DNA of 17,035 nt from a virus (taxonomy: Duplodnaviria; Heunggongvirae; Uroviricota; Caudoviricetes). Positions 1-17,035 of this stretch are shown in pieces. The translations under genes were made by a program, and so were the position numbers. Location of the stretch: the IMG/VR virus record IMGVR_UViG_2671180417_000010, positions 1-17,035 of that record. One strand, written 5' to 3'. The notes under the pieces were generated by a model. It saw nothing but the letters and a program-made list of their open reading frames with translations. It was not told where the DNA came from and searched no databases. Every line of letters begins with the position of its first letter. Positions within the stretch are counted from its first letter, which is position 1.

Positions 1-152
1 TACAACCCCGGACGGCAGAGCTCGCATGCTTTTTGGTTCCGGCTCCACCAGTATTCTGCCGTTATGGAATGCTGACATACATAACTTATTTCACATAACA
101 CGTTGATTTAATTAAATAATTTTCACCGCAAAAAGTGCCAAAAATCGCAAAA

Positions 153-185
153 TGACTACACCAGTGACTACACCGTTCGGTGCAC
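153..185. repeat. Left copy of terminal direct repeat (TGACTACACC x2 followed by GTTCGGTGCAC); candidate att junction
   Basis: 153..185 TGACTACACCAGTGACTACACCGTTCGGTGCAC against 15491..15523 TGACTACACCAGTGACTACACCGATCGTTGCAC: 31 of 33 identical, same orientation, about 15.3 kb apart. Confidence 0.4.
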
Positions 186-190
186 TGTAT

Positions 191-208
191 GAAACAACGT
201 GGAACAAA
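191..208 (+). promoter_or_regulatory. Two 10-bp-phased GAACAA-type units (GAAACAACGTGGAACAA) next to the left terminal repeat
   Basis: Same unit as the arrays at 7651..7680, 13911..13930, 14143..14188 and 15535..15554. Confidence 0.4.
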
Positions 209-286
209 TAGACACAAGAAATATACAGGCGGATCATCTTTCCAGGGGGAAGCGCACCAATTCATGAGGGGCGTTAATGTCGATAT

Positions 287-546
287 GGGGATCCCCACCT
301 ACCGGAATTTTTTTCCGGTTAAACGTTAATCAGGCTGGTGGGCTTTACCTGTTCGGTAGGTGTTATGATTATCGTAATACCTTTCCCCCAATGGGGTAAA
401 AGCATCAACCGTAACGAAAGTCGTTATGGTTGCCACTGATACCCCAAATTTGGGTATCACGAGTAAGCCCCAAAATCTGGGTGTTACTCTTACTACCCAA
501 ACTACGGGTAGTTTCCGTAGTTTCATGGTCGAGTTGCAGATCTGCA
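287..546. repeat. Cluster of palindromes in the non-coding left end: GGGGATCCCC (287..296), hairpin ACCGGAA-T5-TTCCGGT (301..319), CCCCAATGGGG (385..396), ACCCCAAATTTGGGT (442..455), CCCAAAATCTGGG (468..481), CCCAAACTACGGG (496..508), TTGCAGATCTGCAA (533..546)
   Basis: Read directly. Four related CCCAAA-N-TTTGGG half-site pairs spaced about 26-57 bp apart. The overlapping ORFs (86..298, 326..556, 426..686) have non-protein-like composition. Confidence 0.45.
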
Positions 547-804
547 ACTCCCCCATTAACCACAGGCGAATTTCCGCCTTCGGTCATTCCTTAATCATCT
601 GCGTAATCATAATGATTATTCAGCAAGCGCAATTTTGCGCTTTGCTTAAAGTTCAGCGAGTTACCGCGCCGACTTCCTCAAATTGAGGTTTCCGAAAATA
701 TCAGCGGGTTAGCGATTAAGCTGACCATTAATTAAACTGCGAAAATGTCGTAGTTGTGAGGGGTGTAGCCAACCCATTTTTGGGCCGTCGGGAATATCAA
801 CCAG

Positions 805-1086
805 TTACCGCCGCAACCGCTCCGGCTTCTTCCAGTGGTACGTTATTTTCTCCTTCTCCCGATACATCTCCACGCGGCGACGGTAGGCCAGCAACTCAAG
901 AACTCTGGTTCGTATGTTGCGCATATCCACGCCATTAAGTTCTATACCATCACGGCGCATCACCTCAGCAACAACACGCGCATAGTTTTCGGCTGTCACG
1001 CTGTCCGGCAGCGTGGCCTGTTCGTCAGCCTGCTGGCTGATTCCGGCAACGCGGCGGATTAATCCCGTTATTTCGGCTTCTGTCAT
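805..1086 (-). CDS. Hypothetical protein (93 aa) immediately downstream of terL
   Basis: ATG at 1084..1086 preceded by GAGGT. Starts 14 nt after the terL stop. Protein-like charged/amphipathic composition. No recognisable motif. Confidence 0.45.
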   Translation of the reverse strand: MTEAEITGLIRRVAGISQQADEQATLPDSVTAENYARVVAEVMRRDGIELNGVDMRNIRTRVLELLAYRRRVEMYREKEKITYHWKKPERLRR

Positions 1087-1099
1087 GCTGCTGACCTCA

Positions 1100-2761
1100 T
1101 TACACCCCGCTAAATTCTTCCAGTTTCTGGCGGTGGCTGTCGCTTATATCAAAAGCAAAATCCTCATGCTCTGCCTGGAATGTACCAAACGCCATCAGCG
1201 CCGCCACGCTCGGGTCTATCTTGTTCGGTGATTTTTTCTTGTTCGGCTTGATATTGGCGTTCGCGTCACTCTGCATCACGACGTTACTCATCGACCAGGA
1301 CAACACCGGATCGCCACGATGCACAATCACCCTGCGGTTAACAAAAACTTCGAACGATTTCGCCGCCGGACTGAATCTGAGGTAGGTTTGCGGGAACGGC
1401 TCCACCTCAAAACCTGCCCCCTGTAATTGCGTTCTGAGATGCGTGGCGTTCCACGTATCAAAGCCCACCAGCCTGATATTAAATTTCTCCGCGTCCTGCA
1501 TGATGTCATCTCTGATCCGGTCGTAATCAATGCAGTCGCCAGGCGTTGTGCGTATCCAGCCTGCTTTAGCCCACTGACGATAGATGGCGCGGTTTTTATT
1601 GGCGGGGTTCTGTAGCTGGAACTCCGGCAGATAATGACGGGAAACCAGCATAATGGTTTTACCTACCGGAAAGGCATAGCACACGCTGGAAATATCGCTT
1701 GTGGATGATAAATCCAGCCCCGCGTAACACTCCTGGCCGTGTAAATCTTCCTCTGTGAACGTTCCGGCACACTCAGCCCATGCGCCGTTACCCATCCACG
1801 GGGTAGCCCCCTGGCACCAGATATTAAATCGCTTTGTCATCATCTCCACCCACTGCGACGGAATACCCCGCGCTTTCTGGATGGTTGAGGCCAGTTTTTC
1901 ACGATCCACGGAAACATCAATATTAGGGTTCGCCTTTATCCACATCGCCGGATCATCAACCTCGTTTTCGTCGTCCAGTTCGTAAATCAGTACAAAAATT
2001 GAATCGTTGACCTCTTCGCCGTCCAGGATCTGGCAGCAATAATCATAGTGCTGCTTACAGGCTGAAACGACGTTACTGCCTGATGTGGTAATAGCAAATA
2101 ACAGCCCTTCGGGACGTGCGCCCATCCCCAGCTCAAGCGCGGAATAAACGCCGTTATCGGGGTGCAAGTGGTATTCGTCCACGATGGAAAGGCTGGGGTT
2201 TGTTCCCTCGATGGTTGCCGCTTTTGCTGCCAGCGGCTTTAACAGGCTGTTGCTTTTCGGGTGTATCACCTTATGCGCCTGAATATTCACCCGCCTGCGT
2301 AACGGTCGGGATAAAAGGCACATCTGACGCGCATCATCAAAGACGATCCGCGCCTGGTCACGGCTCACCGCTGCGGTGTAGATATCCTGCTGACCGTTCT
2401 CCATAATCAGAAACCAGTTAGCCAGAATCGCGGCGGTCGTTGATTTCGCATTTTTGCGCGGCACTTCGATAAAGGCGCTCGTATATTTGCGCCGTCCGGT
2501 GGCCTTAACCTTAAAGCCGAGAATGCACGCAAAGGCGAACTGCTGCCACGGCTCCAGCTCAATGGGTCTGCCACGCATCGGCCCTTTTACGTGCGGGCAC
2601 ACCCTGGAAAAGGCAATAAACCGATCCACAACCTCACGATCGAACGTGTAAAGGGGGCTTTTAAGGTCCGAAAAGTACCGTTTAACGGCCTGTTTCAGCC
2701 GTTTACAGGCCGGAATTTTGCCCGTTTTTACGTCTTCTGCGTACTTATTCCAGGCGGTCAA
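1100..2761 (-). CDS. terL: Terminase large subunit (HK97-type)
   Basis: 553-aa ORF. The ORF-track start at 2761 is a TTG preceded by GAGGA; the next in-frame Met is residue 62. N-terminus MTAWNKYAEDVKTGKIPACKRLKQAVKRYF and overall length are typical of phage large terminases. Overlaps terS by 17 nt. Confidence 0.85.
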   Translation of the reverse strand: MTAWNKYAEDVKTGKIPACKRLKQAVKRYFSDLKSPLYTFDREVVDRFIAFSRVCPHVKGPMRGRPIELEPWQQFAFACILGFKVKATGRRKYTSAFIEVPRKNAKSTTAAILANWFLIMENGQQDIYTAAVSRDQARIVFDDARQMCLLSRPLRRRVNIQAHKVIHPKSNSLLKPLAAKAATIEGTNPSLSIVDEYHLHPDNGVYSALELGMGARPEGLLFAITTSGSNVVSACKQHYDYCCQILDGEEVNDSIFVLIYELDDENEVDDPAMWIKANPNIDVSVDREKLASTIQKARGIPSQWVEMMTKRFNIWCQGATPWMGNGAWAECAGTFTEEDLHGQECYAGLDLSSTSDISSVCYAFPVGKTIMLVSRHYLPEFQLQNPANKNRAIYRQWAKAGWIRTTPGDCIDYDRIRDDIMQDAEKFNIRLVGFDTWNATHLRTQLQGAGFEVEPFPQTYLRFSPAAKSFEVFVNRRVIVHRGDPVLSWSMSNVVMQSDANANIKPNKKKSPNKIDPSVAALMAFGTFQAEHEDFAFDISDSHRQKLEEFSGV

Positions 2762-3101
2762 GCTCGTCCTCTTCTTCTGTTTCCGGTGGATTTTTACGGC
2801 GGCTTATCGGGTCAAAACCGAGCAAGGAGGCCATTTTTATCATCACTCTTTCCGCGTCGGATTTCGCGCTTAATGCGGGGTTTCTGCTCTCTCCGCCCTG
2901 ACTGTTAACAATGCTGAACCCGCGCGCCGCAAGGTCTGCGACGGCTTTCCGGTATATCGAGTAATTGACGCAATACAGTTCCAGATTGCTCCAGTCGGCG
3001 GGAGTCAGGTCACCCCGTTCCGCAAGCTGCCGCGATTTTTCCCGCCACTGCTTCACGGCGATATCATCCAGGTAGGCGGGGGCTTTCGGTGGTCTTGCCA
3101 T
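2745..3101 (-). CDS. terS: Terminase small subunit (P27-family-like)
   Basis: 118 aa, ATG at 3099..3101. Sequence LDDIAVKQWREKSRQLAERGDLTPADWSNLELYCVNYSIYRKAVADL...LLGFDPISRRK matches the conserved pattern of P27-type small terminases. Sits directly upstream of and overlapping terL. Confidence 0.8.
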   Translation of the reverse strand: MARPPKAPAYLDDIAVKQWREKSRQLAERGDLTPADWSNLELYCVNYSIYRKAVADLAARGFSIVNSQGGESRNPALSAKSDAERVMIKMASLLGFDPISRRKNPPETEEEDELDRLE

Positions 3102-3389
3102 ACTTATTTTTTCGCCAGATTATTTTTCAAAAAATTCCCGTGCATAAAAATTTGAGGAGGCGGTCGGTGCCCGGCGGGGTCGGGTTTGTCCTGAAAACGC
3201 CCCCCACCCCGTCATACAGCCTCATCAGCGATTGCGGAAACATTCCATAACCTCGCGGTCACGGTCGGTTAATCGCTTCGCTGTGATGCGTTCTGCGCGT
3301 CCTGACGCTTTATCTTTATGCCCTGTTTCCTGTGTCTTCATGCGTCACGCTGCCTTATAAGTCCACGGATAAGGCGGTTTTGTTCCCGC
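3102..3389. other. HNH-terS intergenic region; candidate cos site
   Basis: 288-bp non-coding gap with a GC-rich segment (GGAGGCGGTCGGTGCCCGGCGGGGTCGGG) and repeated GGTCGG/CGGTC motifs. In HK97-type cos phages the cohesive-end site lies between the HNH gene and terS. The exact cos position is not determinable from sequence. Confidence 0.3.
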
Positions 3390-3830
3390 TCATTCATCAG
3401 CGTCATACATCCAGTTATTGCGGTTAGCGGCCCGTTCTTCCTCTTCACGAAATCCACCTGCGGCACGCTTGCTTTTTGTTGCCGGATCAAGCCATTTCGT
3501 TTTCTGGTTATGACACGCCTGACACAATGGTTGATGGTTCCATTCGGGCCAGAAGAGAACATCATCACCGCCATTAATCGGGATAATGTGATCCACCACC
3601 ACGGCGGGCGTATATATCCCCTTCTCAAGGCATCGCACGCATAACGGGTTTTTACTCAGATACATGGCGCGGTATTTGTCCCACTGTCTGGAGTACCCAC
3701 GCGCGCGGCGGTGTCCTCGTCTGGCATCCTCTGCACGCCATGCCGCCCGCCTGTGCTCCTCACACTTGCCGGATTTAACGCGCCTGTTACAGCCTGGTTC
3801 TGTGCATCGTCTTAATGGTTGCCACGGCAT
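3390..3830 (-). CDS. HNH endonuclease (packaging-associated)
   Basis: 146 aa. N-terminal Cys cluster (CTEPGCNRRVKSGKCEEH) and HNH core VDHIIPINGGDDV...CQACHNQKT. Start ATG overlaps the connector stop (TAATG-type junction). Confidence 0.85.
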   Translation of the reverse strand: MPWQPLRRCTEPGCNRRVKSGKCEEHRRAAWRAEDARRGHRRARGYSRQWDKYRAMYLSKNPLCVRCLEKGIYTPAVVVDHIIPINGGDDVLFWPEWNHQPLCQACHNQKTKWLDPATKSKRAAGGFREEEERAANRNNWMYDADE

Positions 3831-4126
3831 CAGTACACCCCCACATCACGGTAAGCCGTCCAGAGCGCGCCAATCGTCATGGGTACGCGCGTTTTTGCGT
3901 TATCCGCTACCAGCTGGCGATTCTCGTACAGGTGAGCGATAAACATCATGCAGCCAATCTTTATGGCTGGCGTGAACTCCAGCCCGTCATCAAAGCGCCT
4001 GCCTATATGTATCTGGCACGCCTCAAGCGATGCGGCAATGTATCCGCTGATTAACTGGTCTTCCTCGTCGCCATCGATGCGGCAATGGAGTTTCACTTCT
4101 TCCAGGGTGATAAGTTCTTCTGTCAT
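3830..4126 (-). CDS. Head-tail connector protein (phage gp6-like)
   Basis: 98 aa. N-terminus MTEELITLEEVKLHCRIDGDEEDQLISGYIAASLEACQ matches the characteristic gp6-like opening (LxxAKxHLRIDxDxDDxLI). ATGA overlap with the upstream gene. Confidence 0.7.
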   Translation of the reverse strand: MTEELITLEEVKLHCRIDGDEEDQLISGYIAASLEACQIHIGRRFDDGLEFTPAIKIGCMMFIAHLYENRQLVADNAKTRVPMTIGALWTAYRDVGVY

Positions 4127-4461
4127 TTTTCCGCGCCCTCACGACAAAGAATTTCAAGGCGTGTCCTGGCGGCATCCGGCAGCGGCTGCCCGATGATATT
4201 CAGTACACGCCCCGCCAGCGGCCCCGTATTGACCTTTATCCGGCTGGTGGCGTTGATGTCCTTCCTGTAGCGTATCCATATCCTTACCGTTCCAGTCGCC
4301 AGTTCTGCACCCGATGAAATGGCCTCCTTGCTGCTGATCATGTTCACGCTTGCCCAGAGTGTGTGACCGTCCACCCACGTTTCGAGTATTTCGCCGGTTA
4401 TATCCCTGGTCTGTTTCAGGGTCTGAATCGTTACCCTGTCACGCAGTCGCCCTATGTTCAT
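4123..4461 (-). CDS. Head closure / head-tail joining protein
   Basis: Start set at ATG 4459..4461 (MNIGRLRDRVTIQ...), which forms an ATGA overlap with the portal stop and has GAGGGAG upstream. The ORF-track start at 4503 would overlap portal by 46 nt. Motifs RDRVTIQ, GEILETW, WASV..., IRYRKDI, LEILCRE resemble the head-tail joining family. Confidence 0.7.
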   Translation of the reverse strand: MNIGRLRDRVTIQTLKQTRDITGEILETWVDGHTLWASVNMISSKEAISSGAELATGTVRIWIRYRKDINATSRIKVNTGPLAGRVLNIIGQPLPDAARTRLEILCREGAEK

Positions 4462-5669
4462 TCCGGTTTTTCTCCCTCGCTGATTTTTACTTCCTGTTTC
4501 CATGCCTGGCTGAACTCATCACCACCATCACGCGGGGACAGCCCTTCACGTTCGCGGGCTTCGTTCGGGCACATAACGCCGGATTTGATGCCGCGTTCAT
4601 AGGTGGCAAAGCGTTCGCCAGGTGTGGCCCGTAACAGGTCCGCGCTGTCAAACTCCACCTGATACCGGATACCAGGTACAGGCGAGGCCACCAGCAGGGC
4701 GTTTTTTATCTGCTGCTCAAAGTTCGCCAGCCACGGGCGCATCGTCATGGTGAGAAATGCGCGGCTTGCCTCGCTGAAATTGCTGTAGGTGCTGTTGCTG
4801 TATTCCTGCAAAAAAATCGGCGAGACGTTGAACATTCGGGCGATGTCTTCAATGGTGAAGCGACGGGAGGCCAGCCATTCAGCATCCTGATTACTCATGC
4901 CCAGCTGCTGATAGCTCATACCCCCTTCAAGGATGGGCGTTTTTCCGGCGTTTCTGGCCCCTTTGTAGCGTTCCAGTGCGGCTAATGCCTGTTTACCCTT
5001 CACGCCGTCCAGCCACTCGCCTGACGTGATAACCCCTGCCGCCATCATGCCATCACGCATCACGCTCGCGCCGTGGCGTTGTTGGGCCAGCCCAAGCCCC
5101 AGCGATTCGCGGCAGATGGTTACAGGTGAGCGCCCCATAAAACCGTCATCCGTGGAGTAACGAAGGTGGAGAACCTCCCACGGTAAATAGTTGCGGGTGT
5201 TTCCGGTGTAGGCGTCAGTGATGCAGTAGCGCCAGTTATGCTCACCTGTCTGCTCCACGTTCACCGACTGCGGCGGGTAAGGATGTAAAGCCACCGGAAA
5301 ACCATCACGCCCCCACTGAATCACCGCATAAGCATTACCGTTTAACAGGCAGTGGCGGATCATCATTCGCTTAAACTGGTAGGGGGTTTGCCATGCGTTC
5401 GGGCGCTCGTTGAGGATGTGATCGACCGGATGAGAATCAAGCCACTCTCGGGCCTCCTTCCCCTTCTCATTGCGTACCAGGTACAGGTAACACGGCATGG
5501 TAGCCACCGCCTCAGAGATGACCGTGACGGCGTTCATGACGGCGGGCAGTGATTCCGCTGTCCCCGATGATACGTACTCACCCGCCCCCGTGTTCGATGT
5601 GCCAGCCAGCGCCATAAACTCATCAAGCGTCATGCTGCGCTGCTCTTTTTTTCTTCTGAAAGGCCACAT
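4458..5669 (-). CDS. Portal protein (HK97 family-like)
   Basis: 403 aa. ATG at 5667..5669 preceded by GGGGG, one nt after the protease stop. Size and sequence character typical of HK97-type portals; acidic C-terminus. Confidence 0.8.
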   Translation of the reverse strand: MWPFRRKKEQRSMTLDEFMALAGTSNTGAGEYVSSGTAESLPAVMNAVTVISEAVATMPCYLYLVRNEKGKEAREWLDSHPVDHILNERPNAWQTPYQFKRMMIRHCLLNGNAYAVIQWGRDGFPVALHPYPPQSVNVEQTGEHNWRYCITDAYTGNTRNYLPWEVLHLRYSTDDGFMGRSPVTICRESLGLGLAQQRHGASVMRDGMMAAGVITSGEWLDGVKGKQALAALERYKGARNAGKTPILEGGMSYQQLGMSNQDAEWLASRRFTIEDIARMFNVSPIFLQEYSNSTYSNFSEASRAFLTMTMRPWLANFEQQIKNALLVASPVPGIRYQVEFDSADLLRATPGERFATYERGIKSGVMCPNEAREREGLSPRDGGDEFSQAWKQEVKISEGEKPE

Positions 5670-5670
5670 A

Positions 5671-6228
5671 TCACACCCCCGCTAAATCCGCCCACCAGCG
5701 GCGATTATCCGCACGAGGCATTTTTTCAGGGTGCTGCTCATACAGGGAACGGCGGGCCAGCTCCACGCCGGAATCAGGGTAAGCCGGTACGGATGTCACG
5801 GTAATTTCGTACAGTTCCGCTATCAGTACAGTACGCACACATGGATCGACTGTCGTATCCCATACATCCTTACGGGAACGAAAGCCAAAGCTCATGCCCG
5901 AGATGTCACCACGTTTAACCAGTTCGATAACGTCCCGCCCTGTGCTGGTATCCGGTGGGATCAGTTCAAAACGTAACCCTGTGTCATCCTCTTCCAGTCT
6001 CAGCGTACCGGAACGGGTGCGCCCCAGTAACATGCTGTGGTCATGCTCATACAGGCCGCGAACGTCATTACCCACCGCAAGCCATTCAGTAAACGCCCCC
6101 CGCTGGAATTTTTCGTAAAATTCGCCCCATAACAGTTCTGAAAGGTTATCCCAGCGAACAACGTAGCCCGTAAGCGTGTTGCTGCCGCTGGTGGTGATTT
6201 CCGATGACCGGATTTCCATACTCATCAT
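5671..6228 (-). CDS. Prohead maturation protease (HK97 / peptidase S78-like)
   Basis: 185 aa. ATG at 6226..6228 with AGGTGA upstream. Motifs GYVVRWD, YEHDHSMLLGRT and GDISGMSFGF resemble the HK97 prohead protease His/Ser region. Confidence 0.75.
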   Translation of the reverse strand: MMSMEIRSSEITTSGSNTLTGYVVRWDNLSELLWGEFYEKFQRGAFTEWLAVGNDVRGLYEHDHSMLLGRTRSGTLRLEEDDTGLRFELIPPDTSTGRDVIELVKRGDISGMSFGFRSRKDVWDTTVDPCVRTVLIAELYEITVTSVPAYPDSGVELARRSLYEQHPEKMPRADNRRWWADLAGV

Positions 6229-6282
6229 AATTTTTTCACCTGTAAAACAGAGAAGGGGCTTTTTAGCCCCTTCGGTGTGCTG

Positions 6283-7440
6283 TTAATCGTCGTCCTGCGG
6301 CAGTTCCAGAATCTTTATAGCGTTCGAATCCACCACGCCACCGCCTAAATATTTCTGCGTGAAAATTTTGATAAAGCCCGGCTCTGTCAGGTTGTCCGGT
6401 CTGGTGCGCACGCCCGTTTCATGATCAACGATGTAATAACCGCGTTTGAAGTCACCCAGGGCGATAACGTTATCCGGCATAAATTCCAGATACTCCACCG
6501 GAAGCCCCAGCAACGTATCAGGATCACCCGCCTGTAAACGGTCGCGCCAGATGTAATCGCCGTTCGCGTTCTTCACCTTCTGAAGTTTTGCCGCCGTCGT
6601 GGAGTTAACCACCCAGACCGCGTTTTTGCGGTATTTTTTACGTAATGCAAATTTCAGGTCGATCAGCGGGTCCGCAGATGTCCACGCCAGAGATTCGGAA
6701 GGTTTAATTACCTGCAACGTACCAAAATCACGCTCTTTGTCGTTCTTCTCTGCACGGGGTACGGATAAAAAACCTTTTGCTTTTTTGTCACCGTCGCCCA
6801 CAACCAGATCGCTTTCTTCGGTTTCCGTGAAGGTGTCGCCAATCTCACCCGTCAGCCATGAAAGGATGTCCACATCGGAAAAATCCACGATTTCCTGTGT
6901 GGTGCGCGGGTACGCATAGACCGGATACAGCTTAATGCTCACCTCGTTAATCTGCGGGGTGCTGGTCTGTTCGCGTGCCTTACCCTCTTCACCGTGGTTA
7001 ACGGTCGCACCGCCAGCGGAAACAAGCTGCTTAAACTCGTTGCTGCTGATTTTCTTCACGGTACAGATGCGGCGCATGGTGGATTCATCCGCCAGCATTC
7101 GCATGATTTCGGTGTTCAGTTCAGGGATAACGGTATAACCACCATCAGCGGGAACGCCTGTACTTAATGCGCGGGTTTCACCGGTCAGAATGTAGTTGCG
7201 TAGTTCTGCGGGGTCAGTGGTCTGGCTGCTTTTACCTGGCTTGCTGCGCTCTTCGTCTGCAATGGCTTCAAGGCGGGAAATGTCTTTATCGAGGGATTCA
7301 GCTTTAGCGCGTAATTCGTCAAATTTTGCGCCCTCAGCATCGTTAAGACTGCGGTTTTCTTTTTCCGCGTTCTCCAGCATGTCGCGCATCTGATTTTTAA
7401 TGGCGGTTTTCTGCTGGCGTAATTCGATTATTCTCGGCAT
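6283..7440 (-). CDS. Major capsid protein (HK97 fold) with N-terminal delta/scaffold-like domain
   Basis: The ORF-track start at 7488 is a GTG lying inside an upstream hairpin. The first ATG is at 7438..7440 (MPRIIELRQQ...) with AGGA 8 nt upstream. N-terminal coiled-coil (IIELRQQKTAIKNQMRDMLENAEKENRSLNDAEGAKFDELRAKAESLDKDISRLEAI) plus C-terminal LLGLPVEYLEFMPD region typical of HK97-type capsid proteins. Confidence 0.8.
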   Translation of the reverse strand: MPRIIELRQQKTAIKNQMRDMLENAEKENRSLNDAEGAKFDELRAKAESLDKDISRLEAIADEERSKPGKSSQTTDPAELRNYILTGETRALSTGVPADGGYTVIPELNTEIMRMLADESTMRRICTVKKISSNEFKQLVSAGGATVNHGEEGKAREQTSTPQINEVSIKLYPVYAYPRTTQEIVDFSDVDILSWLTGEIGDTFTETEESDLVVGDGDKKAKGFLSVPRAEKNDKERDFGTLQVIKPSESLAWTSADPLIDLKFALRKKYRKNAVWVVNSTTAAKLQKVKNANGDYIWRDRLQAGDPDTLLGLPVEYLEFMPDNVIALGDFKRGYYIVDHETGVRTRPDNLTEPGFIKIFTQKYLGGGVVDSNAIKILELPQDDD

Positions 7441-7477
7441 AAAAAAAGTCCTGGGATTAAGTAAGGAACTCCAGGAC
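7441..7477 (-). promoter_or_regulatory. Hairpin plus U7 immediately upstream of the capsid start codon; the stem includes the capsid SD
   Basis: Minus strand reads GTCCTGG-(16 nt loop)-CCAGGAC-TTTTTTT-ATG. The 3' stem half CCAGGAC contains the AGGA Shine-Dalgarno. Seen directly. Confidence 0.45.
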
Positions 7478-7531
7478 GCGGCAAACACTCAACCGTTTTT
7501 CATAAGGAAATCAGCAATCGCACCGATCGTT

Positions 7532-7577
7532 TTCCCGCCTGGTAATGAATATTGGCGAGCACATTAACAGGCGGGAA
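7532..7577. promoter_or_regulatory. 16-bp imperfect inverted repeat (TTCCCGCCTGGTAATG / CATTAACAGGCGGGAA) with 14-bp spacer in the capsid-operon leader
   Basis: Arms at 7532..7547 and 7562..7577, one mismatch. Either a dimeric-regulator operator or a long RNA stem in the late leader. Confidence 0.45.
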
Positions 7578-7650
7578 AGTGGCCCCAGCGTCCTGGCACC
7601 ACGGGCGAGAATACTCATGATTCAGTTCGGGTAAAATATGCCGATCCTGT

Positions 7651-7680
7651 CAGTGAACAACGTGGAACAACCACGAACAA
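7651..7680 (+). promoter_or_regulatory. Three perfect 10-bp-phased GAACAA units (cagtGAACAA cgtgGAACAA ccacGAACAA); candidate activator-binding array for the capsid/late operon
   Basis: Read directly. Located just downstream (in the transcription direction) of the early-operon terminator and about 210 bp upstream of the capsid start. Confidence 0.5.
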
Positions 7681-7689
7681 ATAATTTAC

Positions 7690-7720
7690 AAAAAATGACA
7701 AAAAGCCGGATTTCTCCGGC
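7690..7720 (-). terminator. Rho-independent terminator after the PerC-like gene
   Basis: Minus strand reads GCCGGAGAAATCCGGC (6-bp GC stem, 4-nt loop) followed by TTTTTGTCATTTTTTGT. Hairpin 7705..7720 starts 8 nt after the stop at 7728. Confidence 0.65.
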
Positions 7721-14235: not shown

Positions 14236-15465
14236 TTATTTTCTTCTGGCTACTGGTAGCGTGGTTACGTTTTCATGTGTTCCCGCCAGTATCCCTAACC
14301 GCTCCGTCCACATATCCAGCGCATTGCGTTTAGCATCCAGATAACGGGAATGATTATAAACTCGCTGCATTCCTGGCATCTGGTGGCCTGTAAGCTGCTC
14401 CACGACATGCGGATCAACGCCTAAATCGTTCAGCATGGTTGTAAAGGTGCGCCGGATGTCATGCAGTGACCAGTGAGGATGATTAAGCCTCCTGTGCGCT
14501 AATCTTCCATACTGCGATACGCTGGCCTCCTGTTTCACTTCCCCCAGCAATAAGCCCGTGTGCCTGTTCTGCTCCACCAGCTGCGTGACGAACGGCAGGA
14601 TCGCTTCCGGTATGGGCCGGAATATTGCGACCTTCGTTTTGCTGTGCTCCTTCGGAACGGTCCATAGCATTTCCGTAAAATCCCACTCCCCGATCTCCGA
14701 TAACCTCAGTTCTACCGTTCTGGCTCCGAAGACAATCAGGAGGCGGATTAACGCGACGTAGTAAGGGGAGAATATTTTTTTGTCCAGTGCCTGCAATAAT
14801 TCGCCAAGTTCTTTGTTACTTAAGACACGTTCGCTTATATCCGGTTTTTTCCCAACGTCCGCCACGTTCAGATCGTCCAGAACGTTGCTGATTGCATAGC
14901 GCCGCCTACGGCAGAACTTAAGCGCCTGTTTGCACGCCTGTAGCACGAATCCGGCAGTAACAGGCGTTCGCTTTGCCACCTGGTCAAAACAGGCCAGCCA
15001 GTGCCGTAGCTCGCATTTATCCAGCGGCATAGCACCAATCTGCTGTATTACGTGATTATTAAGTCGCCTTTTCAGGGCGATATAATCCACGCGGTTTTCC
15101 TTTACGTAATACTCAAGCCAGTAGGTGAGCGCATCGCCAACCGTTACCGGCTTTAACGCTTCCTGTACGGTGTAATTAAGCTCATGACGTGGATTTTTCC
15201 CCTCTGCCAGCCATGCGCGACACTGGGCGGCTTTTTCCCTGGCTGATTTCAGGCTCAGATCAGGATAACTTCCCAGCTTAATGCGTTCGGGTCGTGTCTC
15301 CCTTCCCGTTCCGGCCCTGTATGTGAAATACCAGGTCAATTTCCCTGATGTTAAATATTTCACGCTCAGGTTTCCGCCATCACTATAAAACGTGTTTTTC
15401 TCCGCTGGCTTACCATGAAGTTTCCTTAGCAAGGTATCGCTCAGTTTGTTCATTGCTCTGCTCAC
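14236..15465 (-). CDS. int: Site-specific tyrosine integrase (P4 / CP4-type)
   Basis: 409 aa. The ORF-track start at 15465 is GTG with GGGGG 6 nt upstream; ATG alternative at 15453. Catalytic-domain motifs include WSLHDIRRTF (HxxR) and C-terminal GHQM...RVYNHSRYL (Tyr region). N-terminal region resembles an integrase arm-binding domain. Confidence 0.9.
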   Translation of the reverse strand: MSRAMNKLSDTLLRKLHGKPAEKNTFYSDGGNLSVKYLTSGKLTWYFTYRAGTGRETRPERIKLGSYPDLSLKSAREKAAQCRAWLAEGKNPRHELNYTVQEALKPVTVGDALTYWLEYYVKENRVDYIALKRRLNNHVIQQIGAMPLDKCELRHWLACFDQVAKRTPVTAGFVLQACKQALKFCRRRRYAISNVLDDLNVADVGKKPDISERVLSNKELGELLQALDKKIFSPYYVALIRLLIVFGARTVELRLSEIGEWDFTEMLWTVPKEHSKTKVAIFRPIPEAILPFVTQLVEQNRHTGLLLGEVKQEASVSQYGRLAHRRLNHPHWSLHDIRRTFTTMLNDLGVDPHVVEQLTGHQMPGMQRVYNHSRYLDAKRNALDMWTERLGILAGTHENVTTLPVARRK

Positions 15466-15490
15466 GTTTTACCCCCTCTTTACGAAAAAG

Positions 15491-15523
15491 TGACTACACC
15501 AGTGACTACACCGATCGTTGCAC
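15491..15523. repeat. Right copy of terminal direct repeat (TGACTACACC x2 + GATCGTTGCAC), 26 bp upstream of the int start; candidate att junction
   Basis: See 153..185; 31 of 33 identical. Confidence 0.4.
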
Positions 15524-15534
15524 AAAGGGCTACA

Positions 15535-15554
15535 ACGTGAAACAAGCTGGAACA
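15535..15554 (+). promoter_or_regulatory. Two 10-bp-phased GAACAA-type units (GTGAAACAA GCTGGAACAA) 70-90 bp upstream of int
   Basis: Read directly. Same orientation relative to its gene as the array at 7651..7680. Confidence 0.45.
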
Positions 15555-15722
15555 AGGAAAATCACAAATCTGTTGATAATCAAAAACATAATGCACAGCC
15601 TGAAACATTATGAAACAGCAAAAAACACTAAATGATAAAATGCTGTTATTGATTCACGGCCTGGCTTAACGATAACCAGACCGAGTTCCGGTACCAGAAC
15701 AGGTCGAAGTAATACCCGCACA

Positions 15723-16001
15723 TTACCTCCAGATCCGTTGCTGGAATGTGCGGGACGGACGCGCTGGCCGTTCTGAGTAAGGGAGCCTGACGGAGATTAT
15801 CCAGTGACGGTAGTCGAGGCTAAGGGCTTTTTTAACCTCGCATCCGCGCCTGCGGTAACACTGAATGAGCCATTCGGCCTGTTCTTCAGTGCATGGGGGA
15901 TGCTGGTACCAGTCAGATTTGAATGCGTGAAAACACCGTCCGCGCCTGCTGGCAAAGACGGCAGAATCATCAGAATTGTATAATTTGGTATCGTGCGCCA
16001 T
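15723..16001 (-). CDS. Hypothetical protein (about 92 aa) in the right flank
   Basis: The ORF-track start at 16082 is TTG and overlaps the hok terminator hairpin. ATG alternative at 16001 with weak SD. Trp/Arg/Cys-rich. No recognisable motif; could be spurious. Confidence 0.25.
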   Translation of the reverse strand: MAHDTKLYNSDDSAVFASRRGRCFHAFKSDWYQHPPCTEEQAEWLIQCYRRRGCEVKKALSLDYRHWIISVRLPYSERPARPSRTFQQRIWR

Positions 16002-16073
16002 CGGTTGTCTCTGCTGGCGCAGCAGGTGCCAGTTGTTCAGGCTGGCGTGCGAATTGTAAACCAGAATGCCAGG

Positions 16074-16100
16074 AAAAAACAAAACCCGCCGAAGCGGGTT
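16074..16100 (-). terminator. Rho-independent terminator downstream of hok
   Basis: Minus strand reads AACCCGCTTCGGCGGGTT followed by TTTGTTTTTT (hairpin 16083..16100, A-run 16074..16084 on the plus strand). Confidence 0.6.
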
Positions 16101-16168
16101 AAGTGCGGGTGCGTTGAGGATGCCTGATTCATCAGAGGTGGCGAGGGATTTCTCCCTCGCCGGGTCTC

Positions 16169-16324
16169 TTACTCCTCAGGTTCGTAAGCTGTGAAGACAG
16201 CGACCTCCGTCTGGCCGGTTCGGATTCGTACCTCGCAGAGGTCTTTCCTCGTTACCAGTGCCGTCACTATGACGGTGATACAGATGACGATCAGGGCGAT
16301 TAACATCGCCTTTTGCTGCTTCAT
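16169..16324 (-). CDS. hok: Hok/Gef-family type I toxin (small membrane peptide). The in-frame upstream extension to ATG 16381 corresponds to a mok-like frame.
   Basis: 51 aa: MKQQKAMLIALIVICITVIVTALVTRKDLCEVRIRTGQTEVAVFTAYEPEE. Hydrophobic helix followed by the conserved RKDLCE...TGQTEVAVF...AYE pattern of Hok/Gef toxins; closest by recollection to HokC (Gef). The 70-aa ORF 16169..16381 (MLDICRLASYAPKGKEKQA + Hok) resembles MokC organisation. Confidence 0.8.
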   Translation of the reverse strand: MKQQKAMLIALIVICITVIVTALVTRKDLCEVRIRTGQTEVAVFTAYEPEE

Positions 16325-16569
16325 AGCCTGCTTCTCCTTGCCTTTCGGCGCGTAAGAGGCTAACCTACATATGTCTAGCATGAAATTGGCCTCAGATTAA
16401 TGTTAGGCGTCTTGCAGGACGCGTAATGTTAACTGGGGCTTTTCTCTGTCTGCCTTACGGTGGCATGCCCGAGGCAGACAGCCTCAAGCACCCGCAGCAA
16501 TTCTACTTAACTCTCGCTTTACCGCAAACCGTTTTTACCCGATATGGGAATTCCCATATCGTAATGAAT

Positions 16570-16674
16570 TCAGTTCCCTAGTCGATCCATCAAAAACACA
16601 ACCAGGCAGTAAACGCCCACAACAGCAATAACAGCCAGCGCACCTTCTATTGCCAGTGAAATATCATCCGACAT
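16570..16674 (-). CDS. Candidate small hydrophobic membrane peptide (34 aa), below the ORF-track size cut-off
   Basis: GGAGGG SD 3 nt upstream of ATG 16672..16674. Translates to MSDDISLAIEGALAVIAVVGVYCLVVFLMDRLGN, a single predicted transmembrane helix. Not recognised as a named family. Confidence 0.3.
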   Translation of the reverse strand: MSDDISLAIEGALAVIAVVGVYCLVVFLMDRLGN

Positions 16675-16789
16675 ATTCCCTCCTTTGGTGTGAATCCCGG
16701 CGAACGTTTTTACCCCCACCGACAAATAACATATACTAAAAAATCAATAGCTATAGCAACGCCTGTAATTGCAAAGGCTTCAGGCCAGA

Positions 16790-16972
16790 TCATTGGCGCA
16801 CCTCCTGCGGCGGTTCTGGTAGCGGCATCCAGTCGGTTACATTGCGGCTCTGTGTTTCGAAAAATTCATCACCATTACGGACTACATCAAAAAACTCACC
16901 GTCTCGATATTGCGCATAAAGAACGAATGCGCCATCACATAAAATAATTACGTGCTGACCATCATCCGGCAT
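16790..16972 (-). CDS. Hypothetical small acidic protein (60 aa)
   Basis: ATG at 16970..16972 with an in-frame upstream stop inside the window. Protein-like composition (MPDDGQHVIILCDGAFVLYAQYRDGEFFDVV...). The overlapping plus-strand ORF 16690..16947 is His/Arg-rich and less plausible. Confidence 0.35.
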   Translation of the reverse strand: MPDDGQHVIILCDGAFVLYAQYRDGEFFDVVRNGDEFFETQSRNVTDWMPLPEPPQEVRQ

Positions 16973-17035
16973 TCGCTCACTACAGCTTATCCAACCATCC
17001 GGAGTTACCGGATAGTTGGTTGACGTTTCCGAGAT

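Follow-up and report, generated by a model that had tools for sequence, protein, structure and literature searches.

Near the right-hand end of the window (the whole 17,035-nucleotide stretch of DNA analyzed here) lies a small minus-strand gene encoding a 51-amino-acid peptide, MKQQKAMLIALIVICITVIVTALVTRKDLCEVRIRTGQTEVAVFTAYEPEE, which begins at an internal ATG and forms the last 51 codons of a longer, 70-codon open reading frame. A first, sequence-only reading of the region had described the short product as Hok/Gef-like and the in-frame upstream extension as mok-like, and both descriptions held. The peptide matched the Pfam HOK_GEF family along all 42 positions of the model (E = 2.3e-23; score 81.9 bits, cut-off 22) and the PHROG 251 family, annotated as "MokW-like host killing" (E = 2.8e-33), and the extended frame was returned by the open reading frame listing. 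The NCBIfam models for Hok and HokA gave only sub-threshold matches under their curated cut-offs (48 vs. 73 bits and 40 vs. 89 bits, respectively). A weak match to Pfam DUF6232 (E = 0.006), which fell under the cut-off for that family, was discarded. Toxins of the Hok/Gef family (PF01848) are small, hydrophobic proteins of ~50 amino acids in which an N-terminal transmembrane helix is joined to a conserved periplasmic tail. Downstream of the gene, the terminator scan returned the clean intrinsic terminator that had been noticed by eye, consisting of a GC-rich stem of 7 bp (16100..16083, minus strand) followed by TTGTTTTTTC, with the T-run extending to about position 16076. Together with the Rfam match described below, these results cannot be put down to chance. 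The features of the locus and of its immediate downstream neighborhood are collected in Table 1.

Table 1. Features of the hok/mok/sok locus and adjoining prophage genes (window coordinates)
Feature	Position	Strand	Details
hok promoter	16500..16527	-	-35 TTGCGG (16527..16522), 16-nt spacer, -10 TAGAAT (16505..16500)
Full-length hok mRNA, ~418 nt	16076..16493	-	From tac 5' end to terminator T-run; ends inferred by homology
tac, GGGUGCUUGAGG	16482..16493	-	Predicted to pair with fbi (full-length fold) and with ucb (truncated fold)
ucb (anti-SD box), AAGCCCC	16435..16441	-	Predicted to pair with mok SD (full-length) and with tac after 3' truncation
mok Shine-Dalgarno (SD), GAGG	16390..16393	-	8 nt before mok ATG; invariant in 41 loci (G101 A102 G103 G104)
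mok reading frame, 70 codons	16381..16169	-	From ORF listing; in frame with hok, common stop
dcb, GCCUC, inside invariant AGCCUCUUAC	16356..16360	-	Predicted to pair with mok SD in truncated fold only
hok Shine-Dalgarno, AAGGAG	16334..16339	-	Near-invariant in alignment; overlaps sok -35 of opposite strand
hok toxin gene, 51 aa	16324..16169	-	ATG at 16324, stop at 16171..16169; Pfam HOK_GEF
UACGAA at Tyr47 codon	16181..16186	-	Candidate site for A-to-I recoding by TadA (Tyr to Cys); invariant in 41/41 loci
3' stem-loop, GGCGAGGGA-GAAA-UCCCUCGCC	16140..16161	-	Helix 16; 97.6% paired, 4 pairs changed on both sides
fbi, CCUCAACGCACCC	16107..16119	-	Predicted to pair with tac, one bulged C; compensatory changes across genera
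Intrinsic terminator of hok mRNA	16076..16100	-	Terminator scan; stem 16100..16083 plus T-run
sok promoter	16338..16366	+	-35 TTGCCT (16338..16343), 17-nt spacer, -10 TAACCT (16361..16366)
Sok antisense RNA, predicted, ~77 nt	16373..16449	+	Ends mapped on RefSeq-annotated K-12 sokC
92-aa phage ORF	15723..16001	-	Downstream of hok, outside the toxin-antitoxin module; phrog_1212, E = 4e-35; "hypothetical protein" in O103 prophage
5' fragment of DUF968 (ydfU-like) gene	15650..15721	-	Split by island; remainder at window 1..78

Conservation of these features was assessed on a set of related loci. We collected 60 loci with Hok relatives, using one genome per species, and aligned 41 alignable, non-identical mRNA regions, comprising 40 of the 60 loci and hokW of Sp5. 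The 41 regions, which were 72-96% identical to the window locus, came from Escherichia, Shigella, Kluyvera, Pseudocitrobacter, Citrobacter, Photorhabdus, Pantoea, and unclassified Enterobacteriaceae. The mok ATG was conserved in 38 of them, and in 35 of the 41 the reading frame continued past the hok start. An in-frame spacing of 57 nt between mok and hok, as in the window, was present in 25 of the 41; most of the remainder had a 58-nt spacing and still kept a mok ORF of 55-69 codons. In-frame and out-of-frame arrangements of mok and hok thus both occurred among the 41 loci. By analogy with studied relatives, mok would be expected to provide translational coupling to hok, and its Shine-Dalgarno sequence is the same GAGG motif that is carried by R1 hok/sok (PMC9841398). 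Near the end of the toxin gene, the UACGAA at the Tyr47 codon (T308..A313 of the mRNA) was mostly unpaired in the predicted fold. Editing has been reported for hokB, hokC, hokD, and hokE, and HokD was toxic when expressed (bioRxiv 10.1101/2025.08.07.668861).

The -10 hexamer of the hok promoter ends 6 nt ahead of the mRNA start, and homologous loci had a TAnAAT or TAnnnT hexamer at an equal distance from a GGG start. A generic sigma-70 scan missed the promoters of both hok and sok, since one hexamer in each of them agrees with the consensus at just three of six positions (the -35 in the case of hok); both promoters were therefore assigned through homology to sokW and sokC and positional conservation rather than by consensus score. 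A 22-bp palindrome lies upstream of the hok promoter. It was rejected as an element of the hok family, since elsewhere it was seen only in the same type of prophage.

The 418-nt hok mRNA had a minimum free energy of -176.1 kcal/mol, well below that of shuffled sequences (z = -7.4). In the predicted full-length fold, nt 1-12 pair with nt 375-387, joining tac to fbi with a probability of 0.01 of being unpaired, and ucb (nt 53-59) pairs with the mok Shine-Dalgarno sequence (nt 101-105). Removal of the 46 nt at the 3' end, which comprise fbi and the terminator, changed the predicted partners: in the fold of nt 1-372, tac (nt 1-8) pairs with ucb (nt 53-59), and the mok Shine-Dalgarno sequence (nt 101-105) pairs with nt 134-138, corresponding to dcb, in a hairpin whose loop would expose the mok start region. 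The start region displayed in that loop is the complement of the Sok 5' tail. A two-state switch of this kind has been published for R1 hok/sok (PMC9841398), and our in silico folds reproduce the same pairings. All of the canonical elements (tac, ucb, mok Shine-Dalgarno, dcb, fbi, sok promoter, and Sok) were present, and the ucb, dcb, and Shine-Dalgarno boxes were invariant or nearly so in the alignment. By analogy with R1 (PMC9841398), the 3' stem-loop is expected to act as the protector of the 3' end of the processed mRNA. A stable first hairpin also lies between tac and ucb on the hok mRNA.

The sequence-only reading had placed a cis-encoded antisense Sok RNA on the plus strand around 16330..16440, and we located both a promoter and a predicted RNA there. 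The two hexamers of the sok promoter are identical to those of sokW, which has been tested functionally: in a promoter-less sokW mutant made with primer YO-421, the -10 was changed from TAACCT to GAGCCG and antitoxin activity was abolished (PMC8621323). This primer turns CTAACCTA into CGAGCCGG, and the altered hexamer is the same TAACCT that we assigned as the sok -10. K-12 sokC, on which the ends of the predicted RNA were mapped, starts 8 nt into mokC and has GGGGCUUUUCUCUAU at its 3' end. Folded alone, the predicted Sok (-32.9 kcal/mol; z = -6.7) consists of a free 5' tail of 9 nt, a long terminator hairpin, and a U-run, and the single-stranded tail is complementary to the mok start codon region. 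Compared with sokC and the Rfam consensus, the hairpin carries an 18-nt GC-rich insertion, which it has in common with sokW.

The predicted pairings of the mRNA were examined across the 41 loci. With the structure taken from the window sequence itself, which favors it over controls with slid 3' partners, standard pairs were formed in 89% of cells vs. 39-47% in those controls, and 36 pairs had changed on both sides vs. 12-22; none of 500 shuffles matched the observed covariation score. Despite the window-derived structure, the double substitutions are independent support for the fold. Within the tac/fbi helix, pair 4-405 was UA in 28 loci and CG in 11, and G12-C was replaced by A12-U in five loci. 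In the Photorhabdus loci, GGGCGCUUGAGA and UCUCAAGCGCCC form a perfect helix without the bulged C. An apparently broken second half of the helix in these loci was rejected as a one-column artefact of the alignment register caused by the absent bulge, although the counts given above keep the uncorrected register.

These assignments extend the locus beyond the limits first drawn for it. The initial bounds of 16074..16440 enclose hok and mok, the terminator, and the greater part of Sok; they leave out the first 53 nt of the mRNA, with tac and the first hairpin, as well as the hok promoter and the last ~9 nt of Sok. The true span reaches the mRNA start at ~16493 and, with the promoter, position 16527, which is ~90 nt past the earlier right limit. 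To place the locus among known copies, a 701-nt query around it was searched against 5,426 complete E. coli genomes. It was matched in 4,753 of these, with at least 80% of the query covered in 1,973. The best matches were 99.7% identical and annotated as "hokD: type I toxin-antitoxin system toxin HokD", and no pseudogene flags were found among the matches listed. The locus was also present in 110 phage records, including VT2-Sakai/Sp5 and 933W-type Stx2 phages, where it is annotated as MokW, HokD, gef, or RelF. Because the PGAP name was not reproduced by the NCBIfam HMMs, the gene name hokD is based on how closely its DNA and protein agree with those of K-12 hokD. Taken as a whole, the locus is very probably a hok/mok/sok cassette, a type I toxin-antitoxin module that is complete, belongs to the hokD/hokW lineage, and resides in a Rac/Qin-like lambdoid prophage; the lineage assignment is supported by its lambdoid-prophage site and its close identity to hokD and hokW. 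Judged by sequence identity, it is already known, an ordinary hok/sok copy near-identical to those annotated in ~2,000 E. coli genomes. Its value for discovery is accordingly small, as this is a textbook type I module of which a 91%-identical copy has already been studied experimentally.

We propose that the cassette would operate as follows. The weak promoter would yield a stable, ~418-nt minus-strand hok mRNA. In the full-length RNA, pairing of tac with fbi, together with the placement of ucb over the mok ribosome-binding site, would exclude both ribosomes and Sok. Slow 3' trimming would then strip off the terminator and fbi, upon which tac would move to ucb and the mok Shine-Dalgarno sequence would enter the dcb hairpin, with the mok start region exposed in its loop. 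Ribosomes entering at mok would read on into hok, producing the 51-aa membrane toxin. Sok, a short-lived RNA of ~77 nt transcribed from the opposite strand, would normally keep the toxin from being made: its free 5' tail would bind the mok start region, leading to a translation block and RNase III cleavage. Should Sok synthesis be halted, by loss of the element or by prophage induction, the stable mRNA would mature and Hok would depolarize the inner membrane. The 3' processing, the RNase III decay, and the toxicity are inferred here from R1 hok/sok and hokW-sokW; for the latter, the set of mRNA processing, Sok instability, and RNase III cleavage of the duplex is partly documented (PMC8621323).

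By the same analogy, the physiological role would be to maintain the prophage, to assist lysis upon induction, or both. Alternatively, the cassette could act in abortive infection, which has been reported for R1 hok/sok against T4. The competing account that survives best is that the cassette is structurally intact yet physiologically silent, that is, transcribed and controlled by Sok but never released, with no killing and no role in the prophage cycle. Intact architecture is no proof of activity, since chromosomal hokA, hokB, and hokC with intact structure gave no post-segregational killing, according to earlier work as cited in bioRxiv 10.1101/2025.08.07.668861, and the window cassette may be likened to these. 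In addition, the prophage has already been disrupted by the insertion of an island in its DUF968 gene, so that induction-linked roles may be lost. Against silence, hokW-sokW, at 91% identity, is active, with effects on both lysis and the yield of phage (PMC8621323), and the locus is near-identical in ~2,000 genomes, with no pseudogene flags among the matches listed. Moreover, the regulatory elements are all conserved with compensatory changes, implying ongoing selection. We consider a silent cassette unlikely, although it deserves more weight than any of the alternatives discussed below.

The genomic setting was resolved by comparison with an uninterrupted site. In E. coli O103:H2 12009, window positions 1..78 and 15639..17035 adjoin each other without a break (17623..17700 and 17690..19086 of reference sequence L001). 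The site is inside a lambdoid prophage, with a DUF551 gene on one side and the DUF968-RusA-Q antiterminator genes on the other. The prophage genes run in the order racR-like repressor, cro-like HTH, replication genes, DUF1627, DUF977, DUF551, small ORF, hokD, 92-aa ORF, DUF968, RusA, Q antiterminator, lysis, and head, and the prophage end is marked by an integrase-excisionase adjoining potC. Between the two flanks, the window contains a 15.6-kb segment with genes for a tyrosine integrase, a DUF927 primase, terminase, portal, protease, and capsid, and with a C4-type antisense RNA. This island splits the prophage DUF968 gene at AATGCTGACAT, and the other junction keeps AATGCTGTTAT. A 97%-identical island is found in O157:H7, where it is lodged in a chromosomal gene, tqsA, at TGCTGTTAT. 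The island/prophage junction of the window was found in none of the 5,426 complete E. coli genomes. As read from the junctions and gene content, the region is a nested mobile element, with an integrase-bearing satellite-type island inside a prophage gene, and the prophage flank therefore bears on the interpretation of the neighboring island.

The sequence-only reading had put the locus outside the island att boundary, which the island junction comparison bears out, but had judged it probably chromosomal, which does not agree with flanks collinear with the O103:H2 12009 prophage; the composite mobile region that it mentioned as a hedged alternative proved correct, an integrase-bearing island being lodged in a prophage gene. 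A core-chromosomal hok locus, like hokC beside nhaA, could in principle flank the island by chance, and its position outside the att repeat and the preponderance of matches on chromosomes would fit such an origin. In the uninterrupted reference, however, the locus is enclosed by phage genes: DUF551, DUF977, and the replication genes lie upstream of it, and DUF968, RusA, the Q antiterminator, and genes for lysis and head lie downstream. Integrase/excisionase and potC show where the prophage ends. The proposed synteny comparison points the same way, as hokD in K-12 occupies the same prophage position within the annotated Qin, with the same gene order, and the locus occurs in 110 phage records. 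A core-chromosomal origin is thus very unlikely.

Within the prophage, the cassette lies in, and is co-directional with, the early-right operon of repressor-cro, replication genes, DUF551, hok, DUF968, RusA, and Q. It is conceivable, though we hold it to be improbable, that the locus serves as a built-in induction sensor, in which antiterminated read-through after induction would hit the sok promoter head-on and add hok-sense RNA. If true, this could explain the RecA-dependent loss of Sok RNA reported for hokW (PMC8621323), although hokW sits elsewhere in its phage, unlike the window locus in the early-right operon. The satellite island just downstream might additionally couple the fates of satellite and helper.

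K-12 hokD (relF) of the cryptic prophage Qin is 97.4% identical to the window, but over 16075..16338 only; the HokD of K-12 and the window Hok share 50 of 51 residues, the difference being L16I as deduced from the DNA alignment. This identity, and the PGAP gene name hokD, could be taken to mean that the window holds a similarly decayed remnant with only the toxin ORF and 3' end, Sok and mok control being gone. That reading is refuted by the sequence comparison and retains hardly any plausibility. Only 14 nt ahead of the hok ATG, the homology to K-12 breaks off; relE follows there, relBE abutting the hok Shine-Dalgarno sequence, and K-12 hokD is without tac, ucb, mok start, sok promoter, and Sok. 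The window, in contrast, has the full leader and mok start as well as Sok and its promoter, is matched at 157/157 positions of the Rfam model, and aligns with intact loci. Gene order in Qin is relB-relE-hokD-rem-ydfU(DUF968)-ydfT(Q), rem between hokD and ydfU being K-12's. Since K-12 hokD has only the 3' part, we conclude that the locus is complete in the window, and that the ancestral state of the truncated K-12 gene can be seen here in full.

A covariance-model search, as had been suggested for this locus, matched Rfam RF01794, labelled "sok antitoxin", on the hok strand (16493..16319, minus), with 114.3 bits (gathering score, 59; E = 8e-26) over all 157 positions of the model. In K-12, RF01794 matches the hokC/mokC strand with equal strength (602..754, minus), and RefSeq sokC lies opposite (653..711, plus). 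Because the model spans from the tac 5' end to the hok AUG, RF01794 represents the hok mRNA leader containing the Sok target, and the Sok gene is the reverse complement of the central part of the match. The idea that Sok is instead the 175-nt minus-strand element itself, a sense-strand sRNA, takes the strand of the Rfam match at face value and has virtually no chance of being right, given the K-12 precedent, the extent of the model, and the folding of the plus strand into a tail and terminator. For annotation, a "sok antitoxin" match from Rfam should be read as marking the hok-sense leader, with the real Sok shorter and on the other strand.

Among characterized systems, the window cassette closely resembles hokW-sokW of the Stx2 prophage Sp5 and phages VT2-Sakai and 933W in E. 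coli O157:H7, with 90.8% DNA identity over 94% of the query. The two have in common a 51-aa Hok, a 70-aa in-frame mok product (annotated as MokW in VT2-Sakai), identical tac and fbi, and a lambdoid-prophage site adjoining a DUF551 gene. They differ at the Hok C-terminus (AVFTAYEPEE in the window vs. AVFVDYESEK in HokW) and at the 3' end of the transcript, where hokW is without the hairpin terminator adjoining fbi that the window has. Their sites also differ, hokW being near the prophage end beside ygiW-like and LPD5 genes and the window locus between DUF551 and DUF968/Q. Experimentally, hokW-sokW is a working type I toxin-antitoxin system: HokW is a toxic protein of the inner membrane, and sokW RNA is visible on northern blots and neutralizes the toxin (PMC8621323). 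After mitomycin C treatment, sokW RNA was lost and HokW appeared in a RecA-dependent manner, and deletion of hokW-sokW halved phage release (PMC8621323).

More distant is hokC/mokC/sokC (gef) of K-12 and related Escherichia, with ~75% DNA identity to the window. There, too, mok is in frame with hok and shares its stop, and Sok begins 8 nt inside mok on the opposite strand. In contrast to the window locus, hokC is core-chromosomal beside nhaA, encodes a 50-aa toxin, and in its K-12 copy is flanked by IS186; sokC is 59 nt long and lacks the 18-nt hairpin insertion of the window Sok. In the R1 plasmid system, mok is in a different frame from hok. R1 hok/sok (parB) has the same elements, the same mRNA switch, the GAGG mok Shine-Dalgarno sequence, and a Sok 5' tail directed against the mok start, but it is plasmid-borne whereas the window locus is prophage-borne, and toxins of the HokW type are only 44% identical to R1 Hok (PMC8621323).

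In an alignment of 41 non-identical hok mRNA regions (A1), we found that the upstream mok reading frame lay in frame with hok at a spacing of 57 nt in 25 loci and out of frame at a spacing of 58 nt in 12. Most of the out-of-frame loci retain a mok ORF of 55-69 codons; therefore, what is constrained seems to be translation through the start of hok, and not the protein sequence of Mok. Decay variants of the hok locus were also present in nature among the fetched loci. L006 carries a mutated form (GACTGCATGTGG) of tac, the 5' pairing element, together with an out-of-frame mok. Homology begins only at the hok Shine-Dalgarno sequence in L007, L052, and L060, a truncation of the K-12 type. The 3' end of L020 has been replaced and does not include fbi, the 3' pairing element, and the 5' leader of L050 is unrelated.

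The hexamer UACGAA at the Tyr47 codon of hok, which is similar to the anticodon loop of tRNA-Arg(ACG), showed no variation in 41 of 41 aligned hok loci. Cys30 is the only Cys encoded in the tail of the window Hok, and editing at this candidate recoding site would therefore create a second one. Recoding of Tyr to Cys by TadA at such sites has been described for hokB and reportedly occurs in hokC/D/E too (bioRxiv 10.1101/2025.08.07.668861).

The Rfam model RF01794, named "sok antitoxin," matched the minus strand at 16319..16493 of the window and at 602..754 of the K-12 hokC/mokC/sokC region (L064). Its direction is that of the hok mRNA leader, from tac to the hok AUG, and is opposite to that of the RefSeq-annotated sokC. 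Automatic annotation by RF01794 would assign both the wrong strand and the wrong length to Sok. A separate Rfam match, to sRNA-Xcc1, was observed downstream of the ant gene in phage VT2-Sakai (L003 6019..6106, minus strand; 60.6 bits vs. a gathering threshold of 53) and has no relation to the hok/sok finding.

Two very small hydrophobic ORFs are placed between the DUF551 gene and hok, neither of which had a match in Pfam, NCBIfam, or PHROG. A protein could bind to the perfect palindrome upstream of hok, or the palindrome could act as a bidirectional hairpin. We ruled it out as an element of the hok family, since, of the 65 fetched loci, only that of the same prophage type carried it (L001, the uninterrupted prophage region of E. 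coli O103:H2 12009).

Features of the island and of the hok region, in window coordinates
Feature	Position	Strand	Remarks
Integrase-bearing island, 15.6 kb	79..15649		junctions 68..78 and 15639..15649
P1/P7-type C4 antisense RNA	12374..12461	-	Rfam, 69 bits; inside island
a1/b1 target of C4	12529..12578	-	Rfam, 46.8 bits, barely over gathering; inside island
UACGAA at hok Tyr47 codon	16181..16186	-	edited A would be 16185
Perfect 22-bp palindrome, CGATATGGGAATTCCCATATCG	16540..16561		13 bp upstream of hok -35
Hydrophobic ORF, 34 aa, MSDDISLAIEGALAVIAVVGVYCLVVFLMDRLGN	16570..16674	-	RefSeq: hypothetical protein
Terminator-like hairpin	16619..16603	-	within 34-aa ORF
Hydrophobic ORF, 27 aa, MIWPEAFAITGVAIAIDFLVYVICRWG	16710..16793	-	

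In the lambdoid prophage, the island interrupts the ydfU-like DUF968 gene, with junction sequences AATGCTGACAT and AATGCTGTTAT. It encodes a tyrosine integrase, a DUF927 primase, an HNH protein, small and large terminase subunits, portal, HK97 protease, major capsid, and head-tail connectors. These head and packaging genes are accompanied by no tail genes within the island, a gene set typical of a capsid-forming satellite. The window's island/prophage junction was found in none of 5,426 complete E. coli genomes, and the island therefore has the look of a satellite that inserted at a secondary site, within a prophage. An O157:H7 island that is 97% identical to it occupies a different site, the chromosomal tqsA, at TGCTGTTAT. 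In the related O157 island, an Icd-like cell-division inhibitor gene is annotated at the position equivalent to the C4 site, which, together with the C4 and a1/b1 matches, suggests that the satellite carries a C4/icd-type immunity module.
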